DNA from: a virus
Lineage: Duplodnaviria; Caudoviricetes
Direction: 5' to 3' (one strand)
Virus record (IMG/VR): IMGVR_UViG_3300047409_000788
Coordinates: 1-53,391 of that record
Length of the DNA: 53,391 nucleotides
Of this stretch, positions 2,800 through 47,743 are shown piece by piece. Made by a program: the position numbers and the translations under genes. The notes under the pieces are model-generated. The model had not been told where the DNA came from, did not search any database, and was given only the letters and a program-made list of their open reading frames with translations. Numbering within the stretch: the first letter of the stretch is position 1; the number at the start of each line of letters is the position of its first letter.

Positions 2800-3535
2800 A
2801 GTCCCTCCTCAATCTAAGTCTTGATGTTGGATCTTTCCTATATTGTTCGAGGAGTATCTGCTTCCTCGCACAATGAAAATAGAATCCTGCACTTACAGCA
2901 CTCGGAAGCGACAGCCTATAATGTAGCTGTCGCTTTGTTCCATAGGGGCCGCCATTATTTGCACTTACTGTTGTATGGATGCCAATACTTGCACAGAGCT
3001 TACCAAACTCCTGTACAAATCCATGAGCACCGGCAAACCTCAGATAATTGTCTCGACACTTCTTTTTTTTGCTCACTATCCCCAGCGAAATGGATCCATC
3101 CGTATCCATGAGCCCTGCCAGGAACGCCAGTCGTGCGCCCTCTGACGCCTTCCAGATATACTGCGGCATGCGCTTCTTCTCATTCGTTGCACATAGGAGA
3201 AACTGGGTCAGTGGGATACTGTTCCACTGCACGATATAGATAACCGTTCCTTGATTGACAATCCGTTGCCCTATTCGCGCTTCACGCATCTCCGGGAAGA
3301 ATGCCTTGATCTCTGCGTTACACCTCGTGCCAATTTCTTCCTCGGCACATGCCATGCGCACATAGTAGCGCTTTTTCTCCGGCGCATACGCTGCGTACCC
3401 ATCTCCAAGAAAAGCCCCAAAGAAATACGAGAGCGGACTGAGATCGCGCAAGAACCAAGATGCCCAGGCGGTAGAACCTGCCCAGGACCACGGCAGATGT
3501 TTCGGACCAGATACGGTATGCTTACTGCTAGCCAT
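2774..3535 (-). CDS. Free-standing intein-type (DOD) LAGLIDADG homing endonuclease
   Basis: Motifs YFFGAFLGDG and FLAGLMDTDGS; no intein splicing termini; RBS AGGAG before ATG at 3535; AT-rich. Confidence 0.85.
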   Translation of the reverse strand: MASSKHTVSGPKHLPWSWAGSTAWASWFLRDLSPLSYFFGAFLGDGYAAYAPEKKRYYVRMACAEEEIGTRCNAEIKAFFPEMREARIGQRIVNQGTVIYIVQWNSIPLTQFLLCATNEKKRMPQYIWKASEGARLAFLAGLMDTDGSISLGIVSKKKKCRDNYLRFAGAHGFVQEFGKLCASIGIHTTVSANNGGPYGTKRQLHYRLSLPSAVSAGFYFHCARKQILLEQYRKDPTSRLRLRRDYATQLGFF

Positions 3536-3566
3536 GCTCATCTCCTGCATAGATGGGTGTGGTCAG

Positions 3567-3609
3567 AGACGCTCCCGGTATTCCAGTACCGGGAGCGTCT
3601 TGTATTTTA
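3567..3609 (-). promoter_or_regulatory. -10 box followed by a perfect 14-bp leader hairpin upstream of the LAGLIDADG gene
   Basis: TAAAAT (3604-3609, minus) then AGACGCTCCCGGTA-6nt-TACCGGGAGCGTCT. Confidence 0.55.
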
Positions 3610-38751: not shown

Positions 38752-40206
38752 ATGCCCGTCGATAGTCAACACCCCGCGTATGTCCGCTATTTTCCCCAAT
38801 GGCAACGCTGTCGGGATGTCATGGAAGGCACCGACGCGGTGAAGGGCCGGGCGACCGGGGACCAGGCCGTGCCGCATGGCAGTGGCACGGCCTACTTGCC
38901 GCAACCAAGTGGGATGCAGGCGAGGGACTATCAAGCCTATAAGACCAGGGCGGCGTTCTTTGGGGCCAGTGGCCGCGTGCGGCAAGGGCTGGAAGGTCTC
39001 ATCGAACGCAAACCGCCCGCCATCGTCGTTCCGCAGATGATTGAAGCGCATCTAGCCGATATTACGGGAACGGGGGTCAGCCTCCACGCCCTGAGTAGCC
39101 ATCTGATTACCGAGCATTTGACGACGGGGCGGATTGGGATTCTGGTGGACTTGCCCGAAGAGGACCAGGTGGCCGGGCAGGTGCGGCCGCGCTGGACGCT
39201 CGCGACCGCGGAGCAACTTATCAATTGGCGCCACATGCGGACCCCACTCGGCACGCAGGTCTATCGGCAAGTGGTCTTCGAAGAAGAGATCGACGAGGAA
39301 GACCCCACCGATCCCTATCGCCATCTCGTCATCCCGCAATGGCGGGAAACGGTCTTGGAAGACGGACACTATACCGTGCGCATTTGGCGCAAGGTCCAGG
39401 GCGTGACGGGGGAGACGTTTCTCCTCCGCGATGAGCGCCACCCCCATCGCCGGGGGACCCCGCTTGCGGCGCTCCCGGTCTTTATCCTCAACGCGGATTC
39501 GCTCGATATGACGCTCGGGCCGCCGCCGCTCTTGGATGTGGTGGATTTGAACCTGGCCCATTATCGGACGAACGCCGACTTTAAACATTCGCTGCACATG
39601 TCTTCCCTAGCCACGGCCTACATCACGGGTTGGGAGAATGAAGAGGCAGAAATGCGGGTGGGGGCCCTCACGGCGTGGGTGATTCCCCCCGCCGACGCCC
39701 GGGTGGGGTACCTCGAACCTTCCGGCGCGGGCTGGCAGGGGATGCAGGACGATATGCGCGCCACGGAGGCCCAAATGGCCGTATTGGGGGCGCGGCTCCT
39801 CGAACCGCAACGGCGGACGATCGAAGCGGCGGAAACGCATCAAATCCGGCAATCGGCCGAGCTGAGTATCATGGAAGCCTATGCGCTGGCCGCGTCGGCC
39901 CTCATCACCAAGGCGCTGCGGTGCCACGCCTGGTGGGCCGGGGCGACCGACGACCCCGACGATGCGGGCATTACCTTTACGCTCAATACCGATTTCCTCC
40001 CGACGACCATTGATGCCCCCACGCTGACGGCGTTGACCGCGGCCTGGCAGGCCGGCGCGGTGACCCAAGAAGACCTCTATTATAACCTGGTGCGCGGCAA
40101 TGTGGTCCAGCCGGGGGTGCCGTTTGCCGAGTGGCAGCGCACCCTCCAGGCGCAAGTGCCCGCGATTGACCCCCGCACGCTGGTCCCGGGCGCGCAGGAG
40201 TTCTAG
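38752..40206 (+). CDS. Portal protein (DUF4055-like)
   Basis: HPAY..W..G..VK, YLP, GRIGILVD, PPLLD..LNLAHYR..AD. Confidence 0.85.
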   Translation: MPVDSQHPAYVRYFPQWQRCRDVMEGTDAVKGRATGDQAVPHGSGTAYLPQPSGMQARDYQAYKTRAAFFGASGRVRQGLEGLIERKPPAIVVPQMIEAHLADITGTGVSLHALSSHLITEHLTTGRIGILVDLPEEDQVAGQVRPRWTLATAEQLINWRHMRTPLGTQVYRQVVFEEEIDEEDPTDPYRHLVIPQWRETVLEDGHYTVRIWRKVQGVTGETFLLRDERHPHRRGTPLAALPVFILNADSLDMTLGPPPLLDVVDLNLAHYRTNADFKHSLHMSSLATAYITGWENEEAEMRVGALTAWVIPPADARVGYLEPSGAGWQGMQDDMRATEAQMAVLGARLLEPQRRTIEAAETHQIRQSAELSIMEAYALAASALITKALRCHAWWAGATDDPDDAGITFTLNTDFLPTTIDAPTLTALTAAWQAGAVTQEDLYYNLVRGNVVQPGVPFAEWQRTLQAQVPAIDPRTLVPGAQEF

Positions 40207-40210
40207 CGCC

Positions 40211-41206
40211 ATGCCCTTTCGCGTCACGTTCACCTATCAGCCCGCGCCCGCGGCCCGCCCCCCGGACCCGCGGCGGGCCGCCCTGGTCCTCCGGCTCCAG
40301 GCCCTCGCAGATCGGGCCACGACCCGCCTCCGCCAGCTCTGGCAGGGCGTCTTGACGGACCTGCACAGCGAGGGGAAGGGAATAGGGAATAGGGAGATAG
40401 GGAATAGGGAGATAGGGGGCGGGGGGAATCTCTCCCTACCTCCCTACCTCCCTACCTCCCTACCTCCCTCTTTCCCTTCCCCCCCGCTGACGGAACAAGG
40501 GGTGACCGGGATCATCGCCGCCGCCCTGACCCAGCCGGCGCAACGGCTCCTGCCGGTGGTGCTGGAGGAGGCGGTGGTGCGTGCGGGAACGCAGACCCTG
40601 GCCACGCTGGGCGTGGCCCTGCCCTTGCAGCCGGGGACGGCGGCGGTCCACCAGGCGATCGATGCGTATGTCGGGACGCAAATTCAGGCCATTAGCGAGA
40701 CGACCCGCGAGGCGATCCGCGCGGTCTTACAGACGGGATGGCAGACGGGCCAGCCGCTGGCGGAGGTCACGCGCGCGGTGCAGGCCGTCCTCGGGCTGAC
40801 CCCGCGCCAGGCCCAAACAGTCGCCCGGCTTCAGGCGCGGCTCACGGCGGAGGGGCGCACGCCCCTCCAGATTCAGCGGGCGGTCGCGACCGCCAGTCGG
40901 GTGGCGCTGCGCCAGCGGGCGTTGCAAATTGCCCGCACCGAAGCGCAGTATGCCAGCAATCTCGGGAGCCATCTCGCCCTCCTGCGGAGCGTGGACGCGG
41001 GGCTCCTGGACGCCCAGGCGGTGCGCCGGGTGTGGACGACGGCCGTCGATGAAGCCCTCTGCCCGGACTGTGCGCCGGTGCCGAGCATGAATCCGGACGG
41101 CGTGGGGGTGCAGGAGCCGTTTCATACGCCGCTCGGGGACACGCTGTTTCCCCCGCTCCATACAAATTGCCGCTGCGTGGCAGATACCATCTTTGCCTCG
41201 CAGTGA
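40211..41206 (+). CDS. Minor head protein (Mu gpF-like) carrying an in-frame repeat insertion
   Basis: RALQIARTE, W..D..C..C, PPLHTNCRC. Confidence 0.85.
   Translation: MPFRVTFTYQPAPAARPPDPRRAALVLRLQALADRATTRLRQLWQGVLTDLHSEGKGIGNREIGNREIGGGGNLSLPPYLPTSLPPSFPSPPLTEQGVTGIIAAALTQPAQRLLPVVLEEAVVRAGTQTLATLGVALPLQPGTAAVHQAIDAYVGTQIQAISETTREAIRAVLQTGWQTGQPLAEVTRAVQAVLGLTPRQAQTVARLQARLTAEGRTPLQIQRAVATASRVALRQRALQIARTEAQYASNLGSHLALLRSVDAGLLDAQAVRRVWTTAVDEALCPDCAPVPSMNPDGVGVQEPFHTPLGDTLFPPLHTNCRCVADTIFASQ
40372..40486. repeat. Purine/pyrimidine-asymmetric short-tandem-repeat hairpin element, copy 2 (inside the gpF-like gene)
   Basis: AGGGAAT/AGGGAGAT units followed by (CTCCCTAC)x4. Confidence 0.75.
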
Positions 41207-44273: not shown

Positions 44274-44350
44274 GATCGTTCTCCTGTGTGTGGGGCCGCA
44301 CGGGCGTCAGGACGCGTACACGTCATTTCGTGTACGCGAAAGGACGGCGG

Positions 44351-44569
44351 CTAATAGTGGTTGCTCTCCTCGCCGAGCGCTTCTCGCACCGCATGGGCTC
44401 GGATACGCTCGGCGGTCTCGTCGGTCCAGAGCTCGAGGCACACCCCGCATTCCCATACCGGCAAAACAAGATGAAGCGTGGGACCACCGAGCAGCGGGAT
44501 CGCCTGCTCACGGTGGGTCACGGTTGCCTCATTACACGTGCCACAGAATGGACACACTATTGTTGCCAT
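44351..44569 (-). CDS. YgiT/MqsA-type zinc finger protein
   Basis: CPFC..VLPVWECGVC.E. Confidence 0.65.
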   Translation of the reverse strand: MATIVCPFCGTCNEATVTHREQAIPLLGGPTLHLVLPVWECGVCLELWTDETAERIRAHAVREALGEESNHY

Positions 44570-44582
44570 GGCCTTCCTCCTT

Positions 44583-44615
44583 TGTGTGTAAGGGGGAGCA
44601 GCCTCCCTGCTCCCC
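44583..44615. repeat. 33-bp direct repeat copy 1 (hairpin immediately upstream of an RBS)
   Basis: TGTGTGTAAGGGGGAGCAGCCTCCCTGCTCCCC identical to 45061-45093. Confidence 0.9.
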
Positions 44616-44625
44616 CGGTGGCGGC

Positions 44626-44823
44626 TCAGGCGCCCTCGCGCGCCTGTCTGCCTTCGTGTTTGCCGTGCCAGTAGGCGAGCCACCACTGGCTCTCGTCCTC
44701 GACCTCCTCGGGCACATCCGGCGTGTGCCCAGCCTCCTCGACCGGCCCTTCGAGGGCCTCGACATAGCCCAGGCGGTAGGCCTGCGGATAGGCGGCGCAG
44801 CTCGTACAGTGGGGCTCAGGCAT
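44626..44823 (-). CDS. Small hypothetical protein
   Basis: AYRLGY..AYWHGK; overlaps the upstream stop. Confidence 0.5.
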   Translation of the reverse strand: MPEPHCTSCAAYPQAYRLGYVEALEGPVEEAGHTPDVPEEVEDESQWWLAYWHGKHEGRQAREGA

Positions 44824-45046
44824 GGCAGTCACCGTCACAGACCGTGTGGCAGCGTGGGCAGAGCGTCCCCGTCACGACCGGGCGCACGAGCCGCCAGCCG
44901 TACACGCCGGGGGCGCGGAGCATCGCCTGCGCCTGGGCGGTGTCAGGCAGTGTCCAGGTGCGACCGTCGAAACGGCCCCCCACCTTGCGAGCGTTGGCGA
45001 CGCCCCTGGAAAACATCTGGCCGCTGGCTATCGTAATGGTGGCCAT
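44816..45046 (-). CDS. Small Cys-rich hypothetical protein
   Basis: RBS GAGGAG; CPRCHTVCDGDC. Confidence 0.55.
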   Translation of the reverse strand: MATITIASGQMFSRGVANARKVGGRFDGRTWTLPDTAQAQAMLRAPGVYGWRLVRPVVTGTLCPRCHTVCDGDCHA

Positions 45047-45060
45047 CCTCGTCTCTCCTC

Positions 45061-45093
45061 TGTGTGTAAGGGGGAGCAGCCTCCCTGCTCCCC
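45061..45093. repeat. 33-bp direct repeat copy 2
   Basis: Identical to 44583-44615. Confidence 0.9.
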
Positions 45094-45100
45094 AGTGGCG

Positions 45101-45748
45101 TTACCGGCCTTTGCACCACCCCTCAGCGGTCTTGTGGGACCACCAGGAGCGGCCGTCCTTCCCCTGATTCAGTTTCATCGGCGTGGCGTGGGGGACACAC
45201 CACCCGTCCGGTGTCGGCTGGGCGCCGTGGGGCACGCTCGGCGGACTGGCCGGTGCCGCCGGCGTCTCCATCAGGCCCTCGATCTGGGTGAGGTGTGCCT
45301 GGAACTCCGCCCACGTGGTGCCGCGCGCCGTCAGCAGCGCGTCTCTGCCGCGCACGGTCCCTTTCAGCGTGATCGAGAACGTGGCTTCCGGCATCGACGC
45401 CGCCGTGCGAGGGGCGGGTGACGCCGTCGGCTCCTCCAGGCTGGGCGTCGTGCTGGGTTCCTGGAGCCGGGCGGTGGCCCGCAGGTACAGGCCGCGCGCC
45501 AGCCGATGCTTGCACAGGTGTTCGGGGGCCTGCAGGTCGCCACAGGCGCAATGCCCGTTGACGGTGTACCAGGTCGTGTCATCACTGGCGCGCACCTGGC
45601 ACAGGCCGGCATCGTCGAAGAAGACGCCGCCGTGCAGGACGATGGCGGTGGCCCGCTCTAAGCGGCCATGGAGCGTGGCCGGCAACTTGGCGGAAGCAAT
45701 CGCGGACACCTGCAAAAGTGCGTCGAGGAACGGGGTTGCGGTCGCCAC
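45101..45748 (-). CDS. SWIM zinc-finger protein
   Basis: Y.V..CACGD..CKHRLA; C-terminal C..H..WWSH..WC. Confidence 0.75.
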   Translation of the reverse strand: MATATPFLDALLQVSAIASAKLPATLHGRLERATAIVLHGGVFFDDAGLCQVRASDDTTWYTVNGHCACGDLQAPEHLCKHRLARGLYLRATARLQEPSTTPSLEEPTASPAPRTAASMPEATFSITLKGTVRGRDALLTARGTTWAEFQAHLTQIEGLMETPAAPASPPSVPHGAQPTPDGWCVPHATPMKLNQGKDGRSWWSHKTAEGWCKGR

Positions 45749-45828
45749 GGTCAGGTCCTTTCTCTGGGCCGGGGCTCTTCACCCCGGCATCGTTCGGTTG
45801 TCGAGCGTTCTCTTGTACTCATGATAGG

Positions 45829-46062
45829 CTACCGCAGGGCTGCCAGGGCCGCTGTCACTAATGCCTGCTGGGAGACGTTTTCCTGCAATCCGTATTCACT
45901 CCAACTCCAGCCGCGTCCCTCGTCCTGCCGCAGCGTGATGCTCTCGGCCACATACCGGGCGCGCTGCGCCGGCGTGGTGGTGTGGGTCATGGCCCGGCGG
46001 TGCAAACGCCGGGCCGCTGCAGCGGACTTGTCAGAGGAGATCGTCTCGTGTAAAGTATGCAT
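45829..46062 (-). CDS. Early-region hypothetical protein
   Basis: RBS AAGGA. Confidence 0.5.
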   Translation of the reverse strand: MHTLHETISSDKSAAAARRLHRRAMTHTTTPAQRARYVAESITLRQDEGRGWSWSEYGLQENVSQQALVTAALAALR

Positions 46063-46178
46063 GATCTTTTCCTTCTGGTTGGGGGGAAGGGTGCTTTTCG
46101 GGGCCTGGGGGAAGCCGCCAAGCTGAAACCCCCAGGCCCGCGCTGTCTCTCGTGGCTCATCCAACCTGACGCTCTGAT

Positions 46179-46415
46179 CTACACGTCTTCCCGCATTGTG
46201 CCCGCCGCAAACCGTGCCTGGATGGTCGTCAGGTCCCATCGGGTGACGCCCGTGACGCCATACGCCTGTTGCCGGAGCGTGCTCACCTCGATATGGACCT
46301 GGGGGCCGGCAGGACTGGCCACCCGCCGGACACGGTCAACCACATAGATGGTATCCAGGGGCGTCCCGCGCTGGGTGAGGTCCTGAATCTTCATGCCGAC
46401 TTTCAATGTTGCCAT
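46179..46415 (-). CDS. First gene of the leftward early operon, hypothetical
   Basis: RBS AAGGAG. Confidence 0.55.
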   Translation of the reverse strand: MATLKVGMKIQDLTQRGTPLDTIYVVDRVRRVASPAGPQVHIEVSTLRQQAYGVTGVTRWDLTTIQARFAAGTMREDV

Positions 46416-46443
46416 GATCGTCTCTCCTTGTCTGTGGTGTTAT

Positions 46444-46494
46444 GAGGTTTCGTCGTTTTCGACTTATCAATACGGGTACACACCCGCAGACCTC
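46444..46494 (-). ncRNA. Type III hammerhead ribozyme (U3-A8 core variant)
   Basis: GAGGU-C^-UGCGGGU-GUGU-ACCCGUA-UUGAUAA-GUCG-AAAA-CGAC-GAA-ACCUC: all three stems pair and the cleavage triplet is GUC. Confidence 0.85.
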
Positions 46495-46605
46495 CTGTCG
46501 TCTTGGCCTGTCCCTCCTTCCCCCGTGGCTTCTCAGTGTTGAGCCCACTTGTCCCAGAGTCGGAAGCGGCACCCGCTTGCGCGGTCGCTGTTCTGTTATG
46601 CTCTA

Positions 46606-46634
46606 ATAATAACGTATACGTAATTACCATGCAA
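46606..46634 (-). promoter_or_regulatory. Leftward early promoter with palindromic operator in the spacer
   Basis: TTGCAT-17nt-TATTAT; ACGTATACGT palindrome at 46612-46621. Confidence 0.7.
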
Positions 46635-46784
46635 GGGATTTCTGTATCAAAATGAGGTTTTTTGTGTAGAAATTTTTCTCGACACACGCTAACGTAGGCG
46701 CTATACTCTTTTCTAGTATTTGCTAGATGTTCTAGCAAATACTGTCACCTATGCGTGAGGAAAAGCATGCCAAGAGGGAGCGGC

Positions 46785-47105
46785 ATGGATGATCACGAGG
46801 TTATGCTACTTTTCGCCGAACGCGTTGCGCAGGCGAGAGACAAACGCGGCTGGAGCCAGCAACGGCTGGCCGAGGAAGCCCGCACGACGTATCAAACGAT
46901 TTGGCGCATTGAGAAAGGATCGCATAAGGATGTCGGGATGCTACTCGTGCGGCGGTTAGCCCAGGCATTAGGGGTAGGTGTGGATCGGCTTATTGGAACC
47001 TATGAGGACTCTAGCCGGCGGGCCGGTAGCGACCAGGGTGGCACCGAGTGCGCTACCGGCAAAACCAAGACCACTCTTGAGAGAGAGGTCTTGCAGGGAG
47101 TATAG
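46785..47105 (+). CDS. XRE-family HTH regulator
   Basis: RDKRGWSQQRLAE..TIWRIEKG..LAQALGV. Confidence 0.85.
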   Translation: MDDHEVMLLFAERVAQARDKRGWSQQRLAEEARTTYQTIWRIEKGSHKDVGMLLVRRLAQALGVGVDRLIGTYEDSSRRAGSDQGGTECATGKTKTTLEREVLQGV

Positions 47106-47107
47106 CA

Positions 47108-47743
47108 ATGTCGAAACGTGGCGGCTATATCTATGCTATAGGTATGCAGGAAACGTCCTATGTGAAAATCGGAAGTACGCGAGCACCTATAGCAAAACGT
47201 ATGCAAGAACTGCAAGTTGCACATCCACTCCCCTTGGAAACATTGGCCGTCATAGAAGTCGAGTCCGATCTTGCGCGTATTGAGGCTCAGGTCCATAAGT
47301 TTCTCGCCAAAGAATGGCAACGGGGGGAATGGTTTGACACGGTGATGAATCCTGACCGGCTGGCTCTTTTGGTCAAGGATGCCGTTAGGGTCGTCCTTGA
47401 AGAAGGCGCTACCCATCCTGTACGTAAATCGCCGAGAGATTTTCCTCTGGGACGACGACTGAGGCTAGTACGGCGTGCAAAGAATTACACCCAGCACGAG
47501 CTTGCACAGATGTCCGGGATGAATGCGATTTCTCTTTCACGGCTGGAATCCGGCAATGCGGAGCATGCCTATGCTCGCACGGTACGTGATCTCGCCCAGG
47601 CGCTTGGGGTAAGTGCTGATTATCTGCTGGGATTGACGGAGGAGTCAGGGATGGAACACTCGGAAGAGGCCGCCGCTGAAGCGCTGGTTGGGGCCGGAAC
47701 TTCAGCGGCAGACGATGCCCTCACGAACGAGGGCATCGCGTAG
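47108..47743 (+). CDS. GIY-YIG (T5orf172/Mug113-like) domain fused to an XRE HTH
   Basis: GYIYAI..VKIG..R..L..GEWF; RRAKNYTQHELA..SRLESG..LGVSADYLLG. Confidence 0.8.
   Translation: MSKRGGYIYAIGMQETSYVKIGSTRAPIAKRMQELQVAHPLPLETLAVIEVESDLARIEAQVHKFLAKEWQRGEWFDTVMNPDRLALLVKDAVRVVLEEGATHPVRKSPRDFPLGRRLRLVRRAKNYTQHELAQMSGMNAISLSRLESGNAEHAYARTVRDLAQALGVSADYLLGLTEESGMEHSEEAAAEALVGAGTSAADDALTNEGIA

Follow-up and report, generated by a model that had tools for sequence, protein, structure and literature searches.

A probable compact type III hammerhead ribozyme with a U3-A8 core ahead of a leftward phage operon

Does the transcript of a leftward operon in an uncultivated phage cut itself ahead of its first gene, and would this give the mRNA a defined 5' end? 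The question is raised by a 339-nt intergenic region (47% GC) in the window, i.e. in the whole stretch of DNA analysed, which is the IMG/VR virus record IMGVR_UViG_3300047409_000788 (53,391 bases, linear, ~73% complete); the sequencing runs that contain DNA of the window are soil metagenomes, with no RNA run among them. The region lies between the gene of an HTH regulator and the operon, with the following features at and around it.

46179..46415, minus strand: 78-aa gene that opens the leftward operon, ATG at 46415, GC3 0.77 (coding-type)
46416..46443, minus strand: 28-nt spacer from the ribozyme to the start codon, containing the Shine-Dalgarno (SD) sequence AGGAG at 46428-46424
46444..46494, minus strand: type III hammerhead motif, U3-A8 core variant (Rfam alignment 46442-46496)
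46755..47105, plus strand: divergent HTH_3 regulator of the XRE/Cro-C1 type (PF01381, 6.5e-10)
47108-47743, plus strand, immediately behind the regulator gene: N-terminal T5orf172/MUG113 (GIY-YIG-like) domain fused to a C-terminal HTH_19/HTH_3 domain

On the evidence given below, the region most probably holds a genuine type III hammerhead of a compact subclass, with a U3-A8 core and on the sense strand of the operon, which would render the operon leader self-cleaving and define the 5' end of the mRNA. The HTH_3 regulator is likely to be the repressor for this intergenic region.

The earlier note had described a complete type III hammerhead at 46444-46494 with the core UUGAUAA, read as a covaried U3-A8 pair, and our analysis agrees with it on both the coordinates and the core. 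The junction is composed of the following elements.

46494-46491 with 46447-46444, minus strand: stem III, GAGG with CCUC, plus the pair U16.1 (46490)-A15.1 (46448)
46471..46488, minus strand: stem I, 7 bp, 46488-46482 with 46477-46471, loop GUGU
46464..46470, minus strand: core strand UUGAUAA (positions 3-9), with U3 and A8 in place of C3 and G8
46463-46452, minus strand: stem II, GUCG-AAAA-CGAC, 4 bp, loop AAAA
46451-46448, minus strand: 3' core GAAA (G12 A13 A14 A15.1)
46488..46489, minus strand: predicted self-cleavage site between C17 (46489) and U46488, in hammerhead numbering on the alignment

All conserved core positions are found, C3 and G8 being jointly exchanged for U3 and A8, with a C at N17 and a G-C pair at 10.1-11.1. 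As in the type III arrangement, loops cap stems I and II and stem III is open; the stems in the descriptor match have 7/4/4 bp. The minimum free energy structure of the isolated 61 nt is exactly the hammerhead junction (-18.6 kcal/mol, z -2.1). Hammerheads cleave 3' of N17 in a Mg-assisted reaction, which leaves a 2',3'-cyclic phosphate and a 5'-OH end. From these family rules we infer a cut after C46489, with 46488 as the new 5' end. The U3-A8 pair is an isosteric, compensated replacement of C3-G8 and an already documented, rare core variant. Natural U3-A8 covariation, with such variants active in vitro, was reported in 2011 (excerpts of PMC3088659), where the pair seen in the window is one of the natural core variants, and U3-A8 variants were described in Penelope-like elements in 2014 (excerpts of PMC4209133); the pair has no novelty of its own.

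A search with the Rfam hammerhead models, which the earlier note had proposed, matched Hammerhead_3 (RF00008) with 38.1 bits across the full 54-position model (positions 1-54). The E-values are 6.3e-7 in a local scan of 351 nt against all families and 2.2e-8 in a single-family search of the whole record. The score is ~10 bits short of the RF00008 gathering score of 48.5, and the ribozyme site is reported neither by Rfam at the gathering threshold nor by a filtered scan of the whole window by E-value. The gathering threshold is a cut-off set by curators and no structural feature. With a loose descriptor, which allowed either core and stems of at least 4/3/3 bp, one match was found in the window and none in 300 dinucleotide shuffles of the window; the analytic estimate for an equally strong chance match to the descriptor is roughly 1e-6 to 7e-6 per window. 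As this could still give a few chance matches over very many windows, evidence independent of the stems and the core was therefore sought. It was provided by a model, R3, which was trained solely on seven canonical phage hammerheads and from which the window ribozyme was left out. R3 scores the window site with 53.6 bits, without gaps and colinear over 49/49 positions (filters off), while the runner-up in the window reaches 12.9 bits among the 21 matches listed, and it is mainly because of these two scores that the motif is taken as genuine. In addition, loops I (GUGU) and II (AAAA) are free in both patterns and in the descriptor, yet equal those of the canonical hammerhead L277. A chance look-alike, or a dead relic that no longer cleaves, would be in keeping with the score under the gathering threshold and with the few matches that chance may supply over very many windows. 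Against this stand the absence of matches in the 300 shuffles and the 53.6 bits obtained from a model trained on other sequences, together with the identity of loops that were left unconstrained, and we regard such an origin as very improbable. Judged by its sequence, the window element looks like a true member of a phage class of type III hammerheads that has been described before.

The closest resemblance was found to a group of canonical phage hammerheads. A scan of IMG/VR with a pattern for the canonical core gave at least 118 loci and 110 usable matches, and 20 distinct canonical hammerheads among the 110 usable matches listed passed the strict type III descriptor. Among the matches listed, 7 of these 20 share a compact design, in which stem I has 7 bp and the loop GUGU or GAGU, and stem-loop II reads GUCC-NAAA-GGAC (IMG/VR loci L277, L287, L316, L330, L349, L351 and L359). 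All helix and loop lengths of the seven are equal to those of the window ribozyme, and the loop sequences of the latter are identical to L277; the window differs in having U3-A8 where the seven have C3-G8, and in the fourth pair of stem II, which is C-G in the seven and G-C in the window. The start codon follows about 19-39 nt downstream in the seven, and the window ribozyme is likewise adjacent to a start (28 nt). According to protein searches, the window phage is unrelated to the phages that carry the seven. Natural hammerheads are made fast by a tertiary contact between stem I and stem II. The GUGU and AAAA loops of the window equal, or fit the pattern of, those of 7/20 canonical phage relatives among the matches listed, which argues that loops I and II are conserved; they are candidates for a stem I-stem II contact of this kind.

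For the U3-A8 core, the variant-core pattern gave 10 loci in one scan of IMG/VR. Among the usable variant-core matches listed for viral contigs, 3/125 are full hammerheads, compared with 0.18-0.36 expected from shuffled 5' flanks.

L007, in the provirus record G001: viral U3-A8 hammerhead
L078, in the complete, terminally repeated record G004: viral U3-A8 hammerhead
L120, in the record G005: viral U3-A8 hammerhead

On metagenome contigs, 2/119 of the matches listed are full U3-A8 hammerheads, L135 and L138, which are close relatives of each other. Duplicates (L001, L004, L012 and L013) were dropped before these counts, as were matches less than 90 nt from a contig end (less than 70 nt in the table of distances to start codons, which removes L138 there). 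Rfam scores of the other U3-A8 examples resemble that of the window, with 41.4 bits for G001 and 35.6 bits for L138, both below gathering. The hammerheads of L078 and L120 were not reported by Rfam in a filtered scan of 30 kb of loci or in an RF00008 search of their records, and a 6.8-kb Rfam scan of L129, L131, L135 and L138 reported only that of L138; we take the misses of L078, L120 and L135 as a loss at the filter or first-look stage rather than as absence. A variant model, R2, finds exactly one site in each of the four viral records (window, G001, G004 and G005), and type I or II hammerheads are absent from G000 and G001. When the U3-A8 hammerheads were aligned by model, all 59/59 pair cells of the four viral examples were standard and 10/16 pairs were changed on both sides. 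Since pairing was the criterion by which the members were chosen, and since they were aligned to the model, the pairing count is circular, and both counts show only that the helices differ in sequence; they are no unbiased test of covariation.

Other pattern matches were judged to be chance or partial matches (L006, L009, L070, L086, L095, L115/L119, L117, L123, L149/L179, L152/L220, L178, L213 and others). Some further observations were made at the relatives. In L135 a pistol-ribozyme-like match is found at 546-592 on the minus strand (33 bits, gathering 34.5, model positions 22-68), ~460 nt downstream of the U3-A8 hammerhead, and a small gene between the two would be bracketed by two classes of ribozyme, an arrangement already known for genes of this sort. 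By means of R2, a canonical type III hammerhead with the core CUGACGA was seen in L162 (321-371, minus strand), away from the pattern match; an ATG follows 21 nt past it, and a weak partial match lies 1 kb off at 1385-1429. The ~125-nt leader ahead of the hammerhead in G001 (L012 1400-1500) contains at least five spaced copies of GAACC, and the operon behind this hammerhead includes a RadC-like JAB gene.

A feature shared with the relatives is the position just before a gene. In the window, 15 nt separate the end of the ribozyme from AGGAG (46428-46424), in agreement with the distance of ~15 nt to the first ribosome binding site (RBS) given in the earlier note, and 28 nt separate it from the ATG at 46415. 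The ATG of an ORF of at least 40 codons follows the ribozyme after 28 nt in the window, 13 nt in L007, 21 nt in L078, 27 nt in L120 and 25 nt in L135; in L138, an ATG preceded by AAGGAG was recognized by eye about 30 nt past the ribozyme. In the canonical set, the start of an ATG-led ORF lies within 35 nt in 15/20 among the matches listed, and the ORFs mostly encode 64-112 aa. In the window, G001 and L120 the ribozyme occupies the far 3' end of non-coding, divergent intergenic regions of ~340, 500 and 590 nt, respectively, the divergent genes of L120 being those of the small and large terminase subunits, while in L078 it is located between two small cistrons. Hence, the leader position is common and not universal, and the closeness to the next start codon is the constant feature. 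The survey sharpens a regularity that is testable at scale, namely that hammerheads of this compact phage type stop only some tens of nucleotides short of the next start codon. The sense-strand, intergenic and start-codon-adjacent position, which is common to the relatives, also speaks against a chance look-alike.

At the locus itself, natural variation was seen in one contig. A blastn search with a 611-nt region against phage records gave no match. The 78-aa protein appears to be an orphan by sequence, its searches in viral contigs and in a set of 5.8 billion proteins returning the protein itself only. Its Atlas model is confident (pLDDT 0.82), and small phage proteins and CarD/TRCF-RID-like barrels come closest to it in structure, each of them below the bar for naming a family; the model suggests a small beta-barrel, which we note as a lead only. 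For the 215-aa neighbour protein no relative was found in viral contigs, for the T5orf172-HTH protein none in genome contigs, and for the 942-aa terminase-like protein none in genome contigs or viral contigs. Because these protein and DNA searches did not find an orthologous locus, conservation of the locus rests on one variant contig. This contig, which is 344 nt long and comes from run X3 at a depth of about 4, has three differences from the window, all of them in ribozyme helices and with the core untouched. At 46477 the closing pair of stem I changes from U-A to U.G, the state of 6/7 canonical relatives; at 46487 a G.U pair becomes A-U; and at 46494 the outermost pair of stem III is lost, whereby three pairs and the A-U pair remain, as in several canonical members. 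Two changes that keep pairing and one that breaks it are compatible with a constrained ribozyme and statistically indistinguishable from neutral drift. For a relic it may be said that purifying selection lacks an orthologue as witness; against it, the core is intact in the natural X3 variant. All three X3 differences fall within 51 of the 344 nt, a clustering that is unexplained, and an assembly error is possible at a depth of ~4. The X4 and X5 contigs end at 46416/46424 and resume at 46652/46712, a gap that carries no evidential weight.

The stretch could also be read as coding, either through a 26-codon mini-ORF (GTG 46483 to TGA 46403) or through a longer, real ORF that spans the leader. 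An SD-like AGGAGG at 46496-46491, 7 nt ahead of the GTG, would suit the mini-ORF; the same AGGAGG is, however, the 5' strand of stem III. ORFs crossing the ribozyme have a GC3 of 0.44-0.55, compared with 0.77 for the downstream gene and 0.72-0.86 for neighbouring genes, and because of this low GC3 the site is read as non-coding. The frames in question here, with 0.44-0.45, differ in the same way from the 0.72-0.86 of the neighbouring genes, and translation would leave the hammerhead match unexplained, so that we give this reading almost no credence.

Upstream of the ribozyme, the analysis was concerned with the promoter, the operator and the leader, for which the following features were noted.

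46606..46634, minus strand: candidate promoter TTGCAT-17-TATTAT, 8/12 consensus positions, no call by the promoter scanner
46607-46626: near-perfect palindrome with 11-nt arms, over the spacer and the -10 element of the candidate promoter
46679-46707, plus strand: promoter-like site TCGACA-17-TATACT, 10/12 positions, ahead of the regulator gene
46715-46743, plus strand: inverted repeat, perfect over 13 bp and with 3 nt between its arms, just past 46679-46707 and just before the HTH regulator gene
46490..46599, minus strand: leader, ~110 nt if transcription starts near 46599 (start site inferred), the predicted 5' fragment
46583-46572, minus strand: hairpin CCGC-GCAA-GCGG within the leader
46524-46505, minus strand: purine-rich stretch in the leader, able to pair with hammerhead strands

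The earlier note had proposed a promoter with an operator at 46606-46634. The palindrome is real, and the element ACGTATACGT in the promoter spacer is an exact palindrome with a single occurrence in the window; the promoter, with its 8/12 positions and no call by the scanner, is less certain. The palindrome at 46607-46626 is a plausible, putative operator because it is genuine and stands beside a regulator gene. The inverted repeat at 46715-46743 may serve as an operator, or may form a hairpin at the 5' end of the regulator mRNA. A 9-nt direct repeat was also seen, in which the 3' end of the ribozyme (46442-46450) recurs at 46652-46660, upstream of the candidate promoter, maybe by chance.

Of the structured leader that had been described with a GCAA hairpin, the hairpin at 46583-46572 is present; the 112-nt leader as a whole is no more stable than shuffles (z -0.25). 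The leader has no Rfam match in a local scan against all families and, outside the ribozyme, no similarity to the leader of G001. A role of its own for the ~110-nt upstream RNA, as the earlier note had suggested, thus finds no backing in an Rfam match, in its ordinary stability or in similarity to the leader of this second example. Overall, the earlier note is partly confirmed, in that its main observation holds and its weaker sub-claims less so, and its interpretation as a whole is partly supported.

In nearest-neighbour folding, the equilibrium probability of the complete hammerhead fold is 0.002-0.26 in the presence of the leader, compared with about 0.5 in isolation; in the competitor fold (-25.3 kcal/mol) the purine-rich stretch at 46524-46505 is paired with hammerhead strands. 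The folding models used leave out tertiary contacts and the co-transcriptional order of folding, but the complementarity behind the competitor is truly there in the sequence. On this basis the element might be a real descendant of phage hammerheads that is slow or conditional, so that most transcripts stay uncut, owing to the U3-A8 core and the competing leader helix, and cleavage is regulated or negative rather than a constitutive insulator; the leader fold may gate the ribozyme, or the 5'-OH product may be degraded by host nucleases that depend on the 5' end. In favour of this are the advantage of the competitor by about 4-6 kcal/mol, the low probabilities of the full hammerhead in context, and two mutually exclusive small hairpins that share the GCGG at 46583-46561. 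For a loss of the product there is a parallel in Bacillus, where RNase J1 attacks the RNA that glmS ribozyme cleavage leaves with a 5'-OH end. We nevertheless consider a slow or conditional ribozyme rather unlikely. Loops I and II equal those of canonical relatives and offer a candidate tertiary contact, a stabilization that the thermodynamic models omit, and stems I and II are local hairpins that would form before a co-transcriptional resolution of the competitor. Moreover, the leader has no more structure than shuffles, and the leaders of the other examples are unrelated.

With an active hammerhead as the preferred reading, the operon transcript would cut itself between C46489 and U46488, as the chemistry of the family predicts. 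If transcription starts near 46599, this would remove the promoter-proximal ~110 nt, which would carry a 2',3'-cyclic phosphate end. The mRNA of the operon would then begin with a 5'-OH and the hairpins of stems I and II, ~60 nt ahead of the RBS. With less confidence, such a defined, leader-independent 5' end may be expected to alter the stability or the translation of the mRNA in the manner of RiboJ, and an insulating or stabilizing role of the 5'-OH hairpin end is a reasonable inference. RiboJ is a synthetic insulator in which a hammerhead between promoter and RBS generates a promoter-independent 5'-OH end; it was engineered from the ribozyme of a plant satellite RNA and has an extra 3' hairpin that exposes the RBS. 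The order of parts in the window is alike (promoter, variable leader, hammerhead, RBS) and the same outcome would be expected. RiboJ has the added 3' hairpin whereas none is evident in the window, and the likeness is an analogy of mechanism that implies no membership. An unmasking of the RBS by cleavage finds no support, the predicted accessibility being equal before and after the cut (0.59 vs 0.58 for the SD sequence, 0.04 in both states for the AUG). Because the accessibility of SD and AUG is unchanged, no benefit for translation was computed.

Hundreds of bacterial and prophage hammerheads have been described, many of them beside small genes, with activity both in vitro and in vivo; among them is one directly upstream of ardA (Perreault et al. 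2011, excerpts of PMC3088659). The window shares with these phage hammerheads the junction, the core and a small, non-conserved phage ORF alongside; it differs in that its hammerhead is in a promoter-proximal leader, while the prophage type in the excerpts of PMC3088659 is found between cistrons. Many of the described prophage hammerheads come as pairs or triplets that flank genes, whereas the ribozyme of the window is single. The window record has no further Hammerhead_3, _II or _1 match, and R2 finds one site only. Other ribozyme families gave no match within 2 kb downstream (44300-46450, E up to 5). In these searches the locus does not show a ribozyme-flanked gene cassette, which would have a second self-cleaving ribozyme within about 1-2 kb on the same strand. 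In RNA mycoviruses, cleavage by hammerheads in the 5' UTR is reported to enable translation (2026, excerpts of PMC13725137). The two settings agree in that a hammerhead is located in a viral 5' UTR just before an ORF, with translation, and not replication, as the proposed beneficiary of cleavage; the mycovirus elements are, however, type I hammerheads of eukaryotic RNA viruses with cap-independent translation (excerpts of PMC13725137), while the window has a type III hammerhead in a DNA phage with an SD-led start.

As a described class with a described variant, the ribozyme of the window adds no new kind of element. Prokaryotic hammerheads are known to occur beside small non-conserved ORFs and to be linked to phages, their function not being established in the excerpts of PMC6155905 and PMC6765202, and the task of genomic hammerheads in bacteria and phages is treated as an open question in these excerpts. 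For this question the locus is a clean test case: its ribozyme is single, its promoter-proximal leader is defined, a regulator gene is adjacent and one SD-led gene follows downstream, and its natural U3-A8 core can be compared with canonical relatives. A more far-reaching reading, which we regard as speculative and less probable than not by a clear measure, is that a compact hammerhead ~13-30 nt before small phage genes forms a functional unit, in which cleavage is needed for the translatability or longevity of the mRNA and the leader acts as a switch. If so, the ribozyme would head an operon under repressor control, transcribed away from the regulator and packaging side of the genome, and would do in nature what RiboJ does by design, much like the ribozymes in mycovirus 5' UTRs. 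Mispairing of the purine-rich leader would then make cleavage conditional and thereby switch the expression of early genes.

Two other RNA-like signals were observed elsewhere in the window. At 40355-40495 there is a long hairpin of very high stability (-86 kcal/mol, z -5.4), flanked by a minus-strand ORF and by a gene on the plus strand whose end is near 40206. One of its arms consists of tandem purine units (GGGAAUA/GGGAGAUA-like) and the opposite arm of complementary CCCUACCU-like units, and it gives miRNA-precursor-like Rfam matches on both strands. At 3528-3600 on the minus strand, Rfam gives a sub-threshold match to an R1162-like plasmid antisense RNA, with 40 bits against a gathering score of 55 (E 0.002).
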